64,000 nt of DNA from an uncultured Pseudomonadales bacterium (GTDB lineage Bacteria; Patescibacteriota; Microgenomatia; UBA1400; PJMF01). How positions within the stretch are numbered: the first letter of the stretch is position 1; every line of letters starts with the position of its first letter. The notes beneath the pieces were generated by a model that was not told the DNA's origin, made no database searches, and was given only the letters and a program-made list of their open reading frames with translations. Positions 918-59,950 of the stretch are shown here, piece by piece. A program made the position numbers and the translations under genes. The DNA is taken from positions 197,015 through 261,014 of the forward strand of contig CAYOQI010000001.1 of assembly GCA_964406075.1 (NCBI GenBank). Direction: 5' to 3'.

Positions 918-1057
918 TTTCAAGTTATGATGGTATTTGAAGTACTACACAACTCTCTTCCTCTGGACTTCTTTGCTTCACCACGAAAGCTACACGTGGT
1001 CATACGTCTATAGGTTCTCTTCAAGCAGAGAATCATTTTGTGATTTTCAATGATAAA

Positions 1058-16368: not shown

Positions 16369-17592
16369 ATGGATTACATCGAATTAATCACGGAAGCAGT
16401 CAGTACGCTCACCCTCAATAAAATGCGGACAGGGTTAGCGGTGCTGGGCATCATCATCGGAATTGGCAGTGTAATTGCGTTGGTCTCGATCGGCCAAGCC
16501 AGTCAAAAATCAGTCGAAAATCAAATTCAATCACTCGGATCAAATCTACTCACCATCTCACCCGGTGGCCAAAGTAGTGGCGGTGTTCGTGGTGCGGCTG
16601 GCAGTGCGACGACCTTAACGCTGGAGGATGCGAAAGCGATCGAAACCCAATTATCTGGTTCAACAGTCAAAAGTGTCTCACCTGAATACTCATCTCGCAG
16701 TCAGGTGGTGGCGGGAAAAAATAACACCAATACCTCGATCACTGGTGTGTACGAACAATATGCTGACATCCGAAAAATCGATATGGAAATGGGAAGTTTC
16801 ATTACTGAGGCCGATGTCATCGGCATCAAAAAAGTCGCTGTGCTCGGACCAACGGTGGTAGAAAACTTATTTGGCGAAGGAGTGAATCCCATTGGTCAAT
16901 CGATTCGGATTGAAGGTCAAACCTTTCAAGTCATTGGGGTGACAAAATCAAAAGGTGGCACTGGATTTAATAATGCTGATGACGCGATTTACGTTCCGCT
17001 GTCCACTGCGCAAAAACAATTGTTTGGTGGAAAAAGTGTCACTAGTATTGCCGTCGAAGCGCAGAATCAAGAGGTGATGACCCAAGCTCAAACTGAAATC
17101 GGATACTTACTCCTCGAACGTCACAAGCTCGATACGCCCGAAGAAGCGGACTTTATGATCTTTTCACAAAATGACATTCTCGATACTGCTTCCCAAATCA
17201 CGACCATTTTTACCACGTTGCTGGGTGGCATCGCTGCTATCTCGCTGGTCGTAGGTGGAATTGGAATCATGAATATCATGTTGGTGACGGTGACCGAACG
17301 AACTAGAGAAATTGGTCTGCGAAAAGCCCTCGGTGCGAAGAAAAAAGTGATAACGATGCAGTTTTTGATCGAATCGATCATGCTAACCGTGACTGGTGGA
17401 TTGATCGGGATGGCAGTGGGAATCGCCGTCTCGTTTGGTATTTCGAAAGTGATGAGTCTTCCCTTCACCATCTCACCGATGTCCATCCTGCTCGCCCTCG
17501 GCGTCTCCGGCGCCATCGGTATCATCTTCGGCCTCTACCCTGCTCAAAAAGCCGCCAACCTCCAACCAATTGAAGCGTTGAGGTATGAGTAA
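16369..17592 (+). CDS. ABC transporter permease (MacB periplasmic domain + FtsX)
   Basis: N-terminal TM segment, large periplasmic domain and C-terminal FtsX-type TM bundle (ERTREIGLRKALGA). Start placed at the ATG at 16369 after the ATPase stop. Confidence 0.9.
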   Translation: MDYIELITEAVSTLTLNKMRTGLAVLGIIIGIGSVIALVSIGQASQKSVENQIQSLGSNLLTISPGGQSSGGVRGAAGSATTLTLEDAKAIETQLSGSTVKSVSPEYSSRSQVVAGKNNTNTSITGVYEQYADIRKIDMEMGSFITEADVIGIKKVAVLGPTVVENLFGEGVNPIGQSIRIEGQTFQVIGVTKSKGGTGFNNADDAIYVPLSTAQKQLFGGKSVTSIAVEAQNQEVMTQAQTEIGYLLLERHKLDTPEEADFMIFSQNDILDTASQITTIFTTLLGGIAAISLVVGGIGIMNIMLVTVTERTREIGLRKALGAKKKVITMQFLIESIMLTVTGGLIGMAVGIAVSFGISKVMSLPFTISPMSILLALGVSGAIGIIFGLYPAQKAANLQPIEALRYE

Positions 17593-19453: not shown

Positions 19454-19512
19454 CCCCACCTCTCGTGTCTGCCAAAGGCAGACTCGAGTTCCTCCCCAGT
19501 AAATGGGGAGGG
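19454..19512 (+). repeat. R2-family structured repeat, the only plus-strand copy
   Basis: CCCCACCTCTC, then GTCTGCC-AAA-GGCAGAC, then CCTCCCC-AGTAAAT-GGGGAGG. Its box and terminal hairpin are near-identical to the copy at 55772-55831. Confidence 0.7.
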
Positions 19513-33199: not shown

Positions 33200-33215
33200 A
33201 AATTTCTTCTCTCAC

Positions 33216-33350
33216 TGTCATTCTGAATACTCAAGTGTATTCACGTGAGATGAAGAATCCCGTCGTTAAAGAAGTGCTAAAAAAAGCAACCTCAATCTTT
33301 CCACCGGATCCTTCGCTTCTCGCGATTACGCAAGAACACTCAGGATGACA
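33216..33350. repeat. Complete R1 element: two R1 hairpin halves in inverted orientation (MITE-like, 135 bp)
   Basis: Left half 33216-33265 is TGTCATTCTGA...GAAGAATCCCGTCG. Right half 33304-33350 is CCGGATCCTTCGC...TCAGGATGACA. The ends form the TIR TGTCATYCTGA/TCAGGATGACA. Homologous to 46434-46573. Confidence 0.7.
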
Positions 33351-39161: not shown

Positions 39162-39191
39162 TCCGCCCAAGGCGGATCCGCCTTGGGCGGA
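39162..39191. repeat. Perfect 30-bp GC-rich palindrome TCCGCCCAAGGCGGATCCGCCTTGGGCGGA
   Basis: Verified base by base as its own reverse complement. It can also fold as two tandem 6-bp hairpins. It lies 26 nt upstream of the ATG at 39136. Confidence 0.8.
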
Positions 39192-39240: not shown

Positions 39241-39286
39241 TTCCTCCAACACCTTTCCCCTCTTAGAGGGGAAATACAAAGGGGAG
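39241..39286. repeat. Possible degenerate R2-like element
   Basis: TTCCCCTC-tta-GAGGGGAA hairpin followed by AAAGGGGAG. It lacks the second hairpin, so assignment is uncertain. Confidence 0.35.
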
Positions 39287-46418: not shown

Positions 46419-46433
46419 TTCACTTGTCTTGTT

Positions 46434-46573
46434 TGTCATCCAGAGTACTCTGGTGTAATCACCAGAAACGAAGGATCCCGTCGATCATTGGAATAAAATG
46501 TTTACTTCGCATCTCAATAGCAACTACCGGATCCTTCACTTCTCGCGAGTACGCTAGAATGTTCTGGATGACA
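46434..46573. repeat. Complete R1 element, inverted pair (MITE-like, 140 bp)
   Basis: Left half 46434-46483 is TGTCATCCAGA...GAAGGATCCCGTCG. Right half 46528-46573 is CCGGATCCTTCAC...TCTGGATGACA. Both halves align with those of 33216-33350. Confidence 0.7.
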
Positions 46574-50547: not shown

Positions 50548-50605
50548 TCTCTCCTCGAGGAGAGATCCTCAAGACGACCGAAAGAAGTCATGAGGAAGAG
50601 AGGTG
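50548..50605 (-). repeat. R2-family structured repeat (SD-sequestering hairpin)
   Basis: Minus strand reads CACCTCTCTTCCTCA..TGAGGA-TCTCTCC-TCGA-GGAGAGA-AAACAC-ATG(50541). Confidence 0.7.
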
Positions 50606-54047: not shown

Positions 54048-54106
54048 GCTTCTCTCCTTTGGGAGAGAAGCCTGGTAATCCAGGCAGTGAGGGGAGAATG
54101 ATCTCC
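54048..54106 (-). repeat. R2-family structured repeat (SD-sequestering hairpin)
   Basis: Minus strand reads GGAGATCATTCTCC-CCTCACTG-CCTGG-atta-CCAGG-CTTCTCTCC-CAA-AGGAGAGAAG-CCATACTTTT-ATG(54038). Confidence 0.75.
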
Positions 54107-54123
54107 GCACTTATTGCCATTGT

Positions 54124-54165
54124 TTCAACTGTCTCTAACCTCTAATCTCAATTCTCTTACTTGAT
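54124..54165 (-). repeat. Heptad array; plus strand reads TTCAACT GTCTCTA ACCTCTA ATCTCAA TTCTCTT ACTTGAT
   Basis: Read directly, in the divergent intergenic region before trmD. Confidence 0.6.
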
Positions 54166-54173
54166 GATAAAAT
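54165..54173 (+). promoter_or_regulatory. Candidate extended -10 (TGATAAAAT) that would give a leaderless trmD mRNA
   Basis: TGaTAAAAT ends 6 nt before the ATG at 54180. No SD. Confidence 0.3.
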
Positions 54174-54179
54174 CTTACC

Positions 54180-54917
54180 ATGCGTATAACCATTTTGACA
54201 CTTTTTCCTGAGATGTTCACTGGAGCTTTTTCACACTCCATGCTCAAACGTGCCCAGGATAAAAAATTGCATGATACTCCTCCACTTGAAATAGGAATCA
54301 TTAATATTCGAGATTTTGCTACAGATAAACATCAAACGACGGATGACCGTCCATACGGTGGTGGAGCCGGCATGGTAATGAAAGTCGAACCAATCGATCT
54401 TGCACTCCAGTATGTTCTCTCCCCCTCTAGGGGGAGAACTCAGGCGAGTTATCTGAAAGAAACTCGCCTGATAAGAGAGGGGGAAAGCTCCAAAAGTCAA
54501 ATAACTGCCTCGAAATCCTCAACCAAAATAATCCTCACCTCCGCCAAAGGGAAACTCTTTGGGCAACAAACAGCACAAGTGTATAGTCAGCTTGATCACT
54601 TAGTGATTATCTGTGGTCATTACGAAGGAGTCGATCAACGAGTTGCTGATCATTTAGTTGATGAAGAAGTTCGAATTGGAGATTATGTTTTAACAGGTGG
54701 TGAACCTGCCGCAGCAGTGATAACGGATGCCGTGGCTCGTTTACTTCCAGGAGTTTTAGGAAATGACGTCAGCGCGACTCACGAATCTCACTCTGAACCA
54801 GGATATTTAGAACATCCTCAATACACTCGTCCCGAAAAATATAACGATTGGGAAGTGCCTAAAGTCCTTTTACAAGGGAATCACAAAGAGATTGATGACT
54901 GGAGAAGTAAAAAATAA
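54180..54917 (+). CDS. trmD: tRNA (guanine37-N1)-methyltransferase carrying an in-frame insertion of about 24 codons derived from an R2 repeat
   Basis: ILTLFPEMF, DDRPYGGGAGMVM, CGHYEGVDQRV, IGDYVLTGGE and HPQYTRP. There are extra residues between PIDLAL and KIILTSAKG. Confidence 0.9.
   Translation: MRITILTLFPEMFTGAFSHSMLKRAQDKKLHDTPPLEIGIINIRDFATDKHQTTDDRPYGGGAGMVMKVEPIDLALQYVLSPSRGRTQASYLKETRLIREGESSKSQITASKSSTKIILTSAKGKLFGQQTAQVYSQLDHLVIICGHYEGVDQRVADHLVDEEVRIGDYVLTGGEPAAAVITDAVARLLPGVLGNDVSATHESHSEPGYLEHPQYTRPEKYNDWEVPKVLLQGNHKEIDDWRSKK
54416..54485 (-). repeat. R2-family structured repeat located inside the trmD coding sequence (antisense orientation)
   Basis: Plus strand reads TCTCCCCC-tcta-GGGGGAGA-ACTCAG-GCGAGTT-(11 nt)-AACTCGC-CTGATAAGA-GAGGGGGAA. 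The architecture matches the copies at 54048 and 58827. Confidence 0.75.
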
Positions 54918-54925
54918 AGCGTAAT

Positions 54926-55759
54926 TTATACAATTACTTTCTTCAATTTTTCTACATTCAACGCAGTATTTTTTTGGTATGGTCGCTTCGCAGTTCTCAA
55001 ATATTCTTTGAGACTTCCTGGGCGTACTTCTCCCGCTAATCCAAATTGTTCTTTTACTTTGAGTGCAAATTGATAATCAGTCGTCACTGGATCTGTGGAC
55101 GCATGATATAAACCAGTGATTTTTTCTTTGATAACAAAATTAAAAGTATCGGCCAGTTTTTCTATCTGAGTTGGAGTAAAACTGTGATCAATAAACATGG
55201 GTTGGAGTTTATCTTCTTCCAAAAGTTTCTTTATCCGATGCATGACATCCATTTTGGGAAAATCATCTTGACGATAGGGAAATGCGATCCGAAGAATCGT
55301 GTACTCTGCACCTGACTTCTCCACTTCTTCTTCTGCCCAAGCTTTTGTCTGCCCATACCACTCAATAGGATTCACAGAATCTTCCTCCGTGTACAATCCT
55401 TTTTTCTCTCCATCAAATACAAAATCAGTCGAAATATGAATAAGATGTTTGCCAAAATCTTTGGCAGCTTGAGCCATGTTACGTGTTCCCAGGACATTTA
55501 CGGCATACGCAATCCCAGATTTGTCTCCAGTCTCGGCAAAGGCTGCATTTACATCTGTGAACGCTGCAAGGTGGATGATTGTGTTGGCTGTACTTTTTTC
55601 AATTATTTTTTTGATTTGTTTTTCATCAGTAATATCAATACCCGTCGCTCGATCTAGATTGGTAAACTCATACGTATCTGTATACAGATCAACAAACTTT
55701 GAACCAACTAAACCAGATAAACCCGTCCCAATAATTTCCACTTTTTTATTTTTTGTCAT
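54926..55759 (-). CDS. dTDP-4-dehydrorhamnose reductase (RmlD)-like SDR
   Basis: IIHLAAFTDVNAA, HISTDFVFDG and YGQTKAWAE. Confidence 0.7.
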   Translation of the reverse strand: MTKNKKVEIIGTGLSGLVGSKFVDLYTDTYEFTNLDRATGIDITDEKQIKKIIEKSTANTIIHLAAFTDVNAAFAETGDKSGIAYAVNVLGTRNMAQAAKDFGKHLIHISTDFVFDGEKKGLYTEEDSVNPIEWYGQTKAWAEEEVEKSGAEYTILRIAFPYRQDDFPKMDVMHRIKKLLEEDKLQPMFIDHSFTPTQIEKLADTFNFVIKEKITGLYHASTDPVTTDYQFALKVKEQFGLAGEVRPGSLKEYLRTAKRPYQKNTALNVEKLKKVIV

Positions 55760-55771
55760 ACCTATTTAATA

Positions 55772-55831
55772 CCTCCCCATTTATTAGGGAGGACCTCGAA
55801 TCGAATGATAATGAGATTCAGAGAGGTGGGG
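55772..55831 (-). repeat. R2-family structured repeat (SD-sequestering hairpin)
   Basis: Minus strand reads CCCCACCTCTC-TGAATC..GATTCGAG-GT-CCTCCC-taataaat-GGGGAGG-(12 nt)-ATG(55759). Confidence 0.7.
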
Positions 55832-55952
55832 TTACTCGTTTTTTTCTCACCACTCTTCCCCGTCCACCGGCAGGAAACCTCTAACCTCTCGCAACGAAGT
55901 ATAGTAATTTTATAAACAAAACAAAAGGGGAAAGATCGATCCATTTATCGGA

Positions 55953-56210
55953 TTAAAACGTCAGGAGGAAAATTATTGTCCCTGCGAGTAGTGCTGCAAA
56001 AAGATACTCTTTTACAATGGCCGTGGTGAGGTGACTTGACTTGACGTGAGTTAAAATTCCCCAGAAAAAATACATGGCTGATAATGATCCCGCCACAATT
56101 CTCATTCCCGGTCTCGACGGCCACAAGGACAGAAATGCAATCACATGTCCAACCAGTAACACAATCAGAATGGCATATGCAAATTTATGTCGAGATATTT
56201 CATTAAACAT
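55953..56210 (-). CDS. small membrane protein (85 aa, 3 TM)
   Basis: Hydrophobicity pattern. Last gene of the co-directional fibre-locus string. Confidence 0.45.
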   Translation of the reverse strand: MFNEISRHKFAYAILIVLLVGHVIAFLSLWPSRPGMRIVAGSLSAMYFFWGILTHVKSSHLTTAIVKEYLFAALLAGTIIFLLTF

Positions 56211-57476: not shown

Positions 57477-58820
57477 TTAATTAATGCGAAATCTACGAAC
57501 TAACCCACGCCCCAACCAGCTCCCAATTCCTACTCCTCCAGCCAATAACCAATACCACTGACATAACCAGTGTAACCATGAGCCTGGTTCACAATCACAG
57601 CTACTTAACGTATAGAAAAAGTAAATGGAAGTCAGAATGAAAATAAAATCGGCACCAAGATGGAATGAATGTATTTTTTTTCGGAGTAATACATGATTTG
57701 CACCGTGACCAATTGCTTGTAGTAATAAAATAATGAGCGCCAGCCACATTCCATCCTGAGCACACTCCATCACTTCAGTCGCACTTGTTCCTAAAATAAA
57801 CGGAATAACTCCTGACAGAAATGGTTCTGGAGTGGGTGAGGGTTCGATTACATCTCCTAGTACTTCCCCATCGCTAAATCCAAGTGGAGCAGTAAAGGCA
57901 CCTGCAATAGCCGGTTGTCCTGTGGTCGCAACTTCATTCGATCGAGGTCCCGGTGCACATCCATTTATACCGAGTACTTGAAAGTAGTATTGAGTATTTG
58001 GAGTTAAGCCTGAAACTGTATAACTGGTCACATTGCCAACACTATTATTTCCAAATAAATAAACACCTGGTTGGACGCCAAAATTAATAGCATATGTCGT
58101 GACTGGTGAAACTGCTGACCATGCCAACGTCACTTGTCCATTCGCATTCACAATTCCCGGCACAAAAAGTTGAGGGGCAGAACTGGGTAGTTGATCGGTA
58201 CACGGTAGAGCAAAAGCATCCGTTGTCGTTCCGGCTACTGAGTTGAATGAGGTCGATGAAGTGGTTGAAATAGGCGTAGGTGTTGGAGGAGTCGGAAATG
58301 GTGTTAATTGAACTGCTACTTCAACATCAAATACGGTCTGTTTACCTTGAAATTGATTTCCCGAACTTGGATCAAATGTCGCAATGAACGCATATGTTTG
58401 AGTTTGTTGAGCAAGCAGGGGAGAGTAGGAGAGTAAGCTGGAAGAATTTAGTAAACTTTCCAAACTCTGAGAACTCATCACCACTTCCCCACTTTCTGTG
58501 TCTTTTCGAATTTCTATAAAAATTGCTGATGCCAAAGATTGATCGGTGACACCACTTGAACCCATCGCTTGCCAAGCCGGATACAAGGTCTCATTGGTCA
58601 TATTCGTAATAGCGAGGTGTTGAACAAATCTATCACCAGGTAATGTGTTCGTTTCTGAGAAAAGTTGGGCATTTGATGGAGTGATCACACAATCATCAAT
58701 TTCATTTGAACCAAAACAGATGACAGACAAATCTTGGCTTTGTGAGGATGCAAAAATCGGCTTGGTGAATCCAATGTAAAAAATAAAAAGGAAAATGAAG
58801 AAGGAAAAAAATTTAGGCAT
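57477..58820 (-). CDS. secreted TasA-like domain + Pro/Thr linker + fibronectin type III domain + Cys-rich 3-TM C-terminal anchor
   Basis: Signal peptide ...KPIFASS. LPGDRFVQHLAITN and GNQFQGKQTVFDVEVAVQ match the TasA/camelysin hallmarks PGD and QG...F.F.A.Q. FN3 signature VTLAWSAV...YTVSGLTPNTQYYFQV. The hydrophobic C-terminus contains CDCEPG/WLC. Confidence 0.65.
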   Translation of the reverse strand: MPKFFSFFIFLFIFYIGFTKPIFASSQSQDLSVICFGSNEIDDCVITPSNAQLFSETNTLPGDRFVQHLAITNMTNETLYPAWQAMGSSGVTDQSLASAIFIEIRKDTESGEVVMSSQSLESLLNSSSLLSYSPLLAQQTQTYAFIATFDPSSGNQFQGKQTVFDVEVAVQLTPFPTPPTPTPISTTSSTSFNSVAGTTTDAFALPCTDQLPSSAPQLFVPGIVNANGQVTLAWSAVSPVTTYAINFGVQPGVYLFGNNSVGNVTSYTVSGLTPNTQYYFQVLGINGCAPGPRSNEVATTGQPAIAGAFTAPLGFSDGEVLGDVIEPSPTPEPFLSGVIPFILGTSATEVMECAQDGMWLALIILLLQAIGHGANHVLLRKKIHSFHLGADFIFILTSIYFFYTLSSCDCEPGSWLHWLCQWYWLLAGGVGIGSWLGRGLVRRFRIN

Positions 58821-58826
58821 GGATCA

Positions 58827-58878
58827 TCTCTCCTTTGGGAGAGAACTCAAGCCCGATAGGGCCTGAGAGTGAGGGGCG
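58827..58878 (-). repeat. R2-family structured repeat (SD-sequestering hairpin)
   Basis: Minus strand reads CGCCCCTCACTCTCAG-GCCC-tatc-GGGC-TTGAGT-TCTCTCC-CAA-AGGAGAGA-TGATCC-ATG(58820). Confidence 0.75.
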
Positions 58879-59855: not shown

Positions 59856-59863
59856 TTCTTATC

Positions 59864-59914
59864 TGTCATCCTGAACATTCTTGAGTAATTTCAAGAAGTG
59901 AAGGATCCCGTCGG
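59864..59914 (+). repeat. R1-family hairpin repeat, solo copy
   Basis: TGTCATCCTGAACATTCTTGA-gtaatt-TCAAGAAGTGAAGGATCCCGTCGG. Confidence 0.75.
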
Positions 59915-59950
59915 GAACTGAAATACTTTGAAAACTCGGCTAAATTATCA

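Follow-up and report, generated by a model that had tools for sequence, protein, structure and literature searches.

An R2 repeat lies in frame within an intact trmD gene of a Patescibacteria genome and is probably a tolerated loop insertion with a triplex-type layout

The 64,000-nt stretch of contig CAYOQI010000001.1 that was analysed here (the window), from a member of the Patescibacteria or candidate phyla radiation (CPR), carries the essential tRNA methyltransferase gene trmD with a copy of a short dispersed repeat, R2, inside its reading frame. We consider it likely, at a probability of about 0.8, that this copy is a translated and tolerated in-frame insertion that works like a Rickettsia palindromic element (RPE). 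Under this explanation, an R2 copy would have become part of trmD in the codons of the loop between helix 69-80 and strand 115-126 of the protein. With 72 nt and a stop-free frame, it would be transcribed and translated as 24 extra residues, L80 to S103, and these would lengthen a loop that has no fixed length and lies N-terminal to the trefoil knot. The enzyme would stay active, the insert being neutral or nearly so. We propose that a selective filter, and not a function, accounts for its presence here: of the copies that land in an essential gene, only those would last that keep the frame, contain no stop codon and fall within a permissive loop. We infer translation of the insert, retained activity and neutrality from the sequence comparisons described below.

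The gene, the insert and the parts of the element are the following, all on the plus strand.

54180-54917, plus strand: trmD coding sequence, 245 aa, intact according to the list of open reading frames (ORFs), Pfam, PDB matches, the AlphaFold2 model and the invariant alignment columns
54417-54488, plus strand: in-frame insert of 24 codons, L80-S103 (LSPSRGRTQASYLKETRLIREGES), which holds R2 copy A; from loop comparison and frame analysis
54418-54425, plus strand: pyrimidine arm of hairpin 1 (TCTCCCCC); from the sequence and the triplex-layout scan
54426-54429, plus strand: loop of hairpin 1, TCTA, 4 nt
54430-54437, plus strand: purine arm of hairpin 1 (GGGGGAGA), in perfect 8-bp pairing with 54418-54425
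54440-54471, plus strand: hairpin 2, a perfect 11-bp stem (TCAGGCGAGTT/AACTCGCCTGA) with a 10-nt loop, encoding the predicted helix 88-99
54476-54483, plus strand: perfect 8-nt mirror of the purine arm (AGAGGGGG), a candidate third (reverse-Hoogsteen) strand
54540-54551, plus strand: codons S121-G124 (SAKG), which align with the cover loop SPQG 88-91 of Haemophilus influenzae TrmD; intact

The translation across the site reads ...PIDLALQYV-LSPSRGRTQASYLKETRLIREGES-SKSQITASKSSTKIILTSAKG..., exactly as it had been given in an earlier interpretation made from the letters alone (the sequence-only reading), which had described an R2 copy in frame in an otherwise intact trmD. The span of 54416-54485 put forward there is essentially right, the coding insert occupying 54417-54488. 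As its length is a multiple of three and the frame used contains no stop codon, the insert should be translated; only one of the three sense frames is open through it. It is open in one antisense frame, too, and an antisense ORF (54231-54500, minus strand, 89 aa, TTG start) crosses it; its open frame is all that speaks for this ORF.

Alignment with orthologues delimited the insert to 24 codons, the excision of which leaves the loop QYV-SKSQITASKSSTK with 16 aa, compared to 16, 15 and 12 aa in orthologues P0005, P0003 and P0004, respectively. The nearest loops free of R2 thus span 12-16 aa, while orthologue P0006, with a loop of similar length and sequence, has a decayed R2; a same-length loop in R2-free orthologues, named beforehand as the observation that would speak against an insertion, was therefore not what the alignment returned. 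HMMER splits every PDB match at the site (query 2-77 and 114-243 against Staphylococcus aureus TrmD 20-90 and 97-225), so that there are 36 window residues where S. aureus has 6. Likewise, the loop has 40 aa in the window and mostly 10-15 aa among 112 close orthologues (10-15 aa in 76 of them, 26-66 aa in 13), in agreement with the suspicion that it is overlong for a TrmD protein.

Apart from the loop, the protein is an ordinary TrmD. It matches PF01746 in Pfam (E = 2e-50, with 171.7 bits where the cut-off is 27.3) and 27 distinct TrmD sequences of the PDB (HMMER, best E = 1.5e-60), and a Foldseek search with its AlphaFold2 model ranks TrmD crystal structures at the top, with TM-scores of approximately 0.7. 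When 120 orthologues are aligned, 49 columns show no variation, and the window protein keeps every one of them. The motif set D-x-R-P-Y-G-G-G, the S-x-x-G of the cover loop, G-H-Y-E-G-V-D and I-G-D-Y-V-L-T-G-G-E is present, with D-D-R-P-Y-G-G-G, S121/G124, G-H-Y-E-G-V-D and T-G-G-E among the residues retained; the roles of the S-adenosylmethionine (AdoMet)/knot motifs and of the tRNA-contact motifs in TrmD have been described (PMC5372744). The statement that the flanking motifs are intact and that no stop codon interrupts the gene thus held up. In view of the family match, the full set of invariant columns and the TrmD-like model, the gene does not look like a pseudogene, and its product would be expected to be active as an m1G37 methyltransferase. 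According to the protein search, its nearest relatives are from Patescibacteria (CPR) assemblies named Woesebacteria, Cerribacteria and 'Patescibacteria group'.

The AlphaFold2 model, built on the orthologue alignment, has a mean predicted local distance difference test (pLDDT) score of 89.5 and consists, around the site, of helix 69-80, a short helix 88-99 within the insert, coil up to residue 114 and strand 115-126. The pLDDT is 79, 79 and 58 for the ten-residue blocks of 81-110, compared to more than 90 around them. In this model, the insert is found at the N-terminal end of the strand leading into the knot. In alpha/beta folds, ligands usually bind at the C-terminal ends of the strands, and the insert should consequently lie on the side opposite AdoMet. 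TrmD has its trefoil knot within the C-terminal part of the SPOUT domain, and the AdoMet cover loop of the H. influenzae enzyme is SPQG 88-91 (PMC5372744); the insert ends 17 residues ahead of the corresponding SAKG, N-terminal to the knot. Model and alignment thus support a permissive helix-to-strand loop of variable length as the probable insertion site. Of the two explanations offered in the sequence-only reading, a tolerated repeat-derived loop or an element removed at the RNA level, it is the first that fits this position; the second is taken up below.

The same loop was then compared in other TrmD orthologues. Loop DNA was recovered for six long-loop orthologues (P, protein; L, locus), with the following content.

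L086 (P0014): full R2, with arms and tail as in window copies B and C, after two partial tandem copies
L085 (P0064, Cerribacteria genome): short R2 form in the same place and in the window's frame (LSPLSKGRTQ versus LSPSRGRTQ)
L001 (P0006): decayed R2, with GGGAGAGAAC and a 14-nt TGATAAGAGAGGGG junction in common with the window copy; its 5' half is in another frame
L087 (P0059): a different inverted-repeat element, with ends GTCATTCC...GGAATGAC, in the loop
L088 (P0002) and L084 (P0008): AAATTCC-type low-complexity runs in the loop

R2-type elements are therefore present in the TrmD loop of three other CPR lineages (P0014, P0064 and P0006), and in differing reading frames: the 5' half of R2 is read in P0014 in a third frame, unlike that of the window or that of P0006. 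As the reading frame of one and the same element thus varies with the host, the peptide sequence itself would be unimportant. In L086, a second R2 is located just past the trmD stop codon, and the loop copy and this intergenic copy, 450 bp away, have identical arms and tail. The 3' junction of the P0006 copy is identical to that of the window copy and falls at an equivalent codon (..ATA AGA GAG GGG.., IREG, followed by K-S-Q/H). Hairpin 1 of the P0006 copy has decayed. In a neighbour-joining tree computed with the loop left out and without bootstrap, the window protein groups with P0002-P0005, which are without R2; P0006 is placed in the sister clade, with P0014 and P0064 at a large distance. 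From these distant positions, the P0014 and P0064 events would be independent of the window's, and the window and P0006 copies may have one origin or two. Taken together, the sequences support the TrmD loop as a recurrent landing place for repeats.

Several further features of these loci were recorded. At L086 1170-1330, two partial tandem duplications of approximately 48 nt lie ahead of R2 and give a 66-aa loop, an expansion that fits the local instability reported around triplex motifs. Two pairs of sister TrmDs, P0044 versus P0046 and P0071 versus P0086, differ by 6-7 residues in the loop (e.g., EALASS-NLPAQAGI-KDKSSK versus EALASS-KN-KDKSSK); the extra peptide is like a translated small GC hairpin, and these may be recent small insertions. 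The P0006 contig (L001, 1321-1707) has the gene order of the window (trmD, RmlD-like gene, 85-aa ORF, CAP-domain gene), with approximately 380 bp from trmD to the RmlD-like gene compared to 8 bp in the window, and L001 is without R2 at the intergenic sites that bear R2 in the window. At L085 10674-10694, a related hairpin overlaps the trmD stop codon.

In the window, about 8 copies of R2 were found in the 64 kb, with spans of 33-66 nt. They are laid out as a pyrimidine arm, a loop and a purine arm complementary to the first, followed by a variable hairpin, in place of which there may be a 3-nt spacer, and by a mirror repeat of the purine arm. The trmD copy (copy A) is the only one inside a credible gene, the others being intergenic, as listed here.

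58827-58874, plus strand: copy B; its end is 6 nt away from 58820, where the minus-strand gene 57477-58820 has its start codon
54049-54092, plus strand: copy C, in the divergent spacer between trmD and a minus-strand epimerase gene; one mismatch in the third strand
50548-50603, plus strand: copy D, intergenic; from the hairpin descriptor and the triplex-layout scan
55772-55830, plus strand: copy E; it lies upstream of the minus-strand RmlD-like gene, 12 nt from its start codon (55759)
19454-19511, minus strand: copy F, in a convergent intergenic spacer; from the triplex-layout scan
39254-39286, plus strand: short variant without hairpin 2, TTTCCCCTC-tta-GAGGGGAAA-tac-AAAGGGGAG; a class II motif of 9 perfect triads, in which both loops have 3 nt
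948-1032, minus strand: degenerate D-like copy, intergenic; from alignment scoring

The copies at 58827, 54049 and 55772 are on the plus strand, 6-17 nt upstream of minus-strand start codons; with respect to these minus-strand genes, the trmD copy is thus antisense, as had been noticed earlier. On the mRNA strand of these three genes (58827-58874, 55772-55830 and 54049-54092), the last arm of hairpin 1 is GGAGAGA or GGGAGG and resembles a Shine-Dalgarno sequence. Paired with the pyrimidine arm, it may supply or mask the ribosome-binding site of the genes concerned.

Assignment of the trmD copy to the family rests on its sequence signature combined with its layout. A strict hairpin-hairpin-tail descriptor detected only copies A and D, as it missed the other copies on account of bulges in them, and it was therefore replaced by a local-alignment rank test and a triplex-layout scan. 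In the rank test, in which 75-nt segments of both strands were scored against five intergenic copies, the trmD site ranked 1st out of 12,614 and in the same orientation as the references. The sum of its three best scores was 83, compared to 68.8 at the 99.9th percentile; its single best local score, 30, equals the 99.9th percentile (30), so that the resemblance to any one copy is modest. The trmD copy and copy B have GGGRGAGAACTCA and AGWGAGGGG in common. As for the layout, hairpins with a pyrimidine 5' arm are approximately 10-fold commoner in the window than in shuffled sequence, and G/C-containing motifs of the R2 layout without mismatches number 6 in the window versus a mean of 0.02 in 100 shuffles. 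The scan was restricted to G/C-containing stems, as a permissive version (any A-to-T changes, one mismatch) returned A/T-rich junk. In MAFFT alignments, hairpin 1 came out in one register where it has 7 bp and in another where it has 8 bp, and hairpin 2 could not be aligned, for which reason no covariance model was built.

The 3' tract of R2 is the mirror of the purine arm of hairpin 1 and the reverse complement of nothing in the element. This is the order of parts in class II purine-motif intrastrand triplexes, in which a pyrimidine domain on the 5' side precedes a purine domain complementary to it and, on the 3' side, a reverse-Hoogsteen domain that mirrors the purines (PMC4666352). In the published definition (ITxF), stems have 6-15 nt with at most one mismatch, loops have 1-6 nt and the triads are G*G-C, A*A-T and T*A-T (PMC4666352). 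The mirror tract changes together with the purine arm from copy to copy, as can be seen from five of the pairs.

trmD copy (54418): purine arm GGGGGAGA, mirror tract AGAGGGGG
Copy at 39254: purine arm GAGGGGAAA, mirror tract AAAGGGGAG
Copy at 50548: purine arm GGAGAGA, mirror tract AGAGAGG
Copy at 19454: purine arm GGGGAGG, mirror tract GGTGGGG
L001 copy: purine arm GGGAGAGAA, mirror tract AAGAGAGGG

Over 8 copies, mirror identity averaged 0.91 within copies versus 0.78 between copies, a value reached by 10 of 20,000 permutations and by none of 2000 shuffles. This statistic supports the layout and is not proof of selection, the copies being related by descent. The copy at 39254-39286 agrees with the published class II definition in full (9-nt stems, loops of 3 and 3 nt). 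In the trmD copy, the arms (TCTCCCCC and GGGGGAGA; 8 bp, perfect) and the mirror (AGAGGGGG; 8 nt, perfect) agree with it as well. In its layout, R2 is thus built like a class II purine-motif intrastrand triplex with a hairpin added in the second loop, and the label 'repeat', correct as far as a dispersed family is concerned, was too unspecific for it. The triplex itself is a candidate fold, the folding tools used covering Watson-Crick and wobble pairs. Purine-motif triplexes do not form in RNA (PMC4666352), so that any R2 triplex would be a property of single-stranded DNA; at trmD, the triplex-capable strand is the non-template strand. Pairing of the tail with the pyrimidine arm to give an alternative Watson-Crick stem, as in an attenuator-like switch, was considered and rejected, the two being complementary in parallel and, by inspection, poorly so in antiparallel orientation.

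The R2 signature was also found outside the CPR. A metagenome scan for TCTCTCCC-NNN-GGGAGAGAAGG-spacer-AAGTGAGGG, a pattern that fixes the arms and tail of copies B and C exactly, leaves the spacer free and does not force the presence or position of a hairpin, returned 58 loci (L089-L146), nearly all on contigs with 54-71% G+C. They form two classes, each with a different spacer hairpin: the first has several copies per contig, compensatory changes in the hairpin and an extra upstream CTTCTCTCCC...GGGAGAGAAG hairpin; the second lies inside a larger palindrome with ACCCTCAYCCTAACC...GGGTAGGGTGAGGGT-like ends. In L128, an adjacent inverted pair was observed among these high-GC relatives.

It is conceivable, and in our judgement rather unlikely, that R2-type elements are a distinct kind of mobile or self-propagating DNA, in which the unit is a foldable single strand (triplex plus hairpin), with a real site preference by which the TrmD loop, or DNA resembling it, would have been targeted independently in at least four CPR lineages, tolerance of the loop for inserts being only part of the reason. 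If such targeted spread were true, the 58 loci from unrelated high-GC bacteria would point to conserved machinery that recognises the R2 fold.

The following points count against a tolerated, neutral insertion of a triplex-type repeat. Firstly, homologues above approximately 76% identity (loop excluded) are absent from the databases searched; the protein cluster of the window TrmD has a single member, and a scan of genome contigs with the TrmD protein gave, among the matches listed, only relatives of at most 55% identity, its matches being dominated by generic TrmD motifs such as CGHYEGVD. Secondly, the confidence of the model within the insert rests on very few homologous rows. Thirdly, the trmD copy departs from the class II loop rule, loop 1 having 4 nt and loop 2 having 38 nt with the 11-bp hairpin. 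Fourthly, the junction that the window copy has in common with P0006, down to the codon, could stem from an old insertion that selection has preserved, and this would speak against neutrality. The near-perfect palindromes of the window copy, for their part, would argue for a recent event.

The junction shared with P0006 leads to the best of the alternatives, namely that the insert entered once in an ancestor and has been kept since because its helix or its DNA or RNA structure is useful, for instance by adding a contact to the tRNA or to a partner protein, or by controlling trmD expression. Beside the shared 3' junction, this would account for window hairpins that are perfect despite a divergence of approximately 30% between the window and P0006 host proteins, and for helix 88-99, which is predicted with a pLDDT of approximately 79. 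We nevertheless consider it improbable: the peptide is not conserved, given the different frame of the 5' half in P0006 and the third frame in P0014; the nearest relatives P0002-P0005 are without the insert, which turns up at scattered places of the tree; elsewhere, the loop is occupied by unrelated repeats and by runs of low complexity; and in P0006, hairpin 1 was allowed to decay.

Removal at the RNA level, the second explanation of the sequence-only reading, would leave a short-loop protein, the 72 nt being either cut from the mRNA or hopped by the ribosome. The insert RNA does fold into two very stable hairpins (-41.2 kcal/mol, z = -4.6; none of 200 dinucleotide shuffles folds as well), and a TCC codon is found at both insert borders, S81 and S104, which could in principle be matched take-off and landing codons. 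However, with an open frame and a length that is a multiple of three, there is nothing to remove: no stop codon follows the take-off site, there is no frameshift, and intron-like features are lacking. A permissive Rfam scan of 54100-55000 returned no family at E <= 5 inside the insert and four weak chance matches, all of them outside it; the sole Rfam match at the gathering threshold in the window is a tRNA. Moreover, orthologues retain decayed or unstructured inserts of similar length within the frame, and non-palindromic inserts are found in this loop in other lineages. Known cases of programmed bypass, such as T4 gene 60 and the mitochondrial 'byp' elements of Magnusiomyces, break the frame or carry stops and have matched take-off and landing codons. 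The R2 insert is likewise a short hairpin-forming stretch within a coding sequence, but, being open and in frame, it would require neither bypass nor splicing. We regard removal as very unlikely.

There is similarly little chance that the gene is broken or the insert an artefact, that is, that trmD is a young pseudogene with its function supplied from elsewhere, or that the repeat has caused an assembly chimera. Repeats are able to mislead assemblers, and a second trmD could exist beyond the 64 kb seen. Against this, a Logan contig (L002, run SRR12762304, 1950 bp) is identical to window positions 54069-56018, with 0 mismatches; the Logan assembly is independent, but its reads are possibly those behind the deposited assembly. 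This identity argues against an assembler-specific chimera. Furthermore, the ORF is complete with every invariant residue kept, a chimera would be in frame and stop-free only by luck, with one of three sense frames open, and three other lineages have an in-frame R2 in the same loop.

We think it scarcely credible that the insert is not R2 at all and arose by local slippage of purine/pyrimidine-rich sequence, with a likeness due to low-complexity convergence: such tracts readily give mirror and inverted matches and the likeness to any single intergenic copy is modest, yet the three-part layout, common to this site and the intergenic copies, with its perfect 11-bp hairpin 2 in the right place and order (expected 0.02 times per window), the summed score above that of every other segment and the identical arms and tail of the loop and intergenic copies in L086 all speak against it.

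Among known repeats, the closest parallel to the trmD copy is that of the RPEs. As reviewed in PMC10969869 (Ogata et al. 2000, 2002), these are short multi-copy palindromes found between genes and in frame within unrelated housekeeping genes, where the insert adds a peptide, leaves the ORF unbroken and was judged compatible with the protein fold. R2 is likewise multi-copy and palindromic, with about 8 copies in 64 kb and one of them in frame in trmD. According to the same review, however, RPEs measure approximately 100-150 bp, have family-specific conserved peptides, occur in Rickettsia and are in many cases intragenic (PMC10969869), whereas R2 spans 33-66 nt, belongs to Patescibacteria (CPR), has a peptide frame that varies by host and is intragenic in 1 of about 8 window copies. 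The pyrimidine/purine/mirror-purine layout of R2 is not described for RPEs. As there are documented cases of palindromic repeats in frame, in Rickettsia as well as in other organisms (PMC10969869), the earlier opinion that either a tolerated loop or an element removed from the RNA would be unusual was too strong.

Intrastrand triplex motifs are known as multi-copy, conserved, G/C-rich repeats in many bacteria, namely PIT, BoxC and TMECO (Hoyne et al. 2000; Holder et al. 2015, PMC4666352). R2 resembles them in the order of its parts and in being G/C-rich, multi-copy, mostly intergenic and conserved in sequence among copies. It differs in that most R2 copies carry a 16-35-nt hairpin in the second loop, for which the definition allows 1-6 nt. 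TMECO has the pattern CCCTCNCCC-N3-6-GGGNGAGGG-N3-GGGNGAGGG (PMC4666352), which R2 lacks, having arms TCTCYCC and GGRGAGA and the tail AGWGAGGG; and TMECO was reported to be always intergenic in E. coli (PMC4666352), whereas one R2 copy lies within a coding frame. R2 is not a member of the RPE or the PIT/BoxC sequence family, the RPEs being set apart by description.

[quoted passage not shown] In contrast to MITEs, R2 ends in a pyrimidine arm and a mirror purine arm and is without the usual terminal inverted repeats. By inspection, no direct repeat that would indicate a target-site duplication flanks copies A-F; at the trmD site, there is a possible CTCC at both borders and nothing more resembling a direct repeat. 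REP and REPIN sequences are short G/C-rich intergenic hairpin repeats with a GTAG or CGTC head, which are moved by RAYT transposases. R2 shares with them the short G/C-rich intergenic hairpins, and its high-GC metagenome relatives sometimes occur as adjacent inverted pairs, but the heads of R2 are TCTC or CCTC, not GTAG or CGTC.

In-frame palindromic elements in Rickettsia and intrastrand triplex repeats between genes were thus already known. What goes beyond prior descriptions is a triplex-type repeat inside a probably translated frame, the fact that it recurs in several CPR lineages at a single loop of an essential, knotted enzyme, and the occurrence of its signature in unrelated high-GC bacteria. 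In this way, the in-frame 'selfish' palindromes of Rickettsia are brought together with intrastrand triplex repeats of the BoxC/PIT/TMECO kind, which have been reported only from between genes and have so far been a separate subject, and the translated, tandemly expanded (P0014) and decayed copies at one homologous site would be dated snapshots of the element's life cycle. For annotation, the 24 odd TrmD residues would be repeat-derived and neither a domain nor an error; 'LSP..GR', 'SLPLGEK' and 'VIPDLDRES' peptides in CPR proteins are likely of the same kind. With regard to protein science, an essential knotted SPOUT enzyme with 6-55 extra residues at one loop before its knotted core, in several lineages, amounts to a natural experiment, and the loop would mark a safe insertion point that is relevant to knot folding.

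Some minor observations concern other repeats of these genomes. In the divergent spacer that contains the R2 copy at 39254, two tandem perfect hairpins, TCCGCC-caa-GGCGGA and TCCGCC-ttg-GGCGGA, are located at 39162-39191. An RsmB/F-like methyltransferase gene of L085 contains in frame, inside its 3' end (16779-16815), a motif of the class II triplex type, CCCCTCCT-tacgg-AGGAGGGG-gtag-GGGGAGGT; the peptide of this motif, ..SPLLTEEGVGGG.., stands ahead of the EGFF motif, and a second RNA methyltransferase with a translated insert may thus be present. Finally, the window has a second repeat family of approximately 70-140 nt with ends TGTCATCC...GGATGACA and internal hairpins (33209-33350, 46427-46573 and 59857-59925). 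Of the three copies, two directly adjoin a start codon (33199 and 59855), the other comes after a stop codon (46418), and the ends of this family are similar to those of the GTCATTCC...GGAATGAC element translated in the P0059 TrmD loop (L087 1001-1747).

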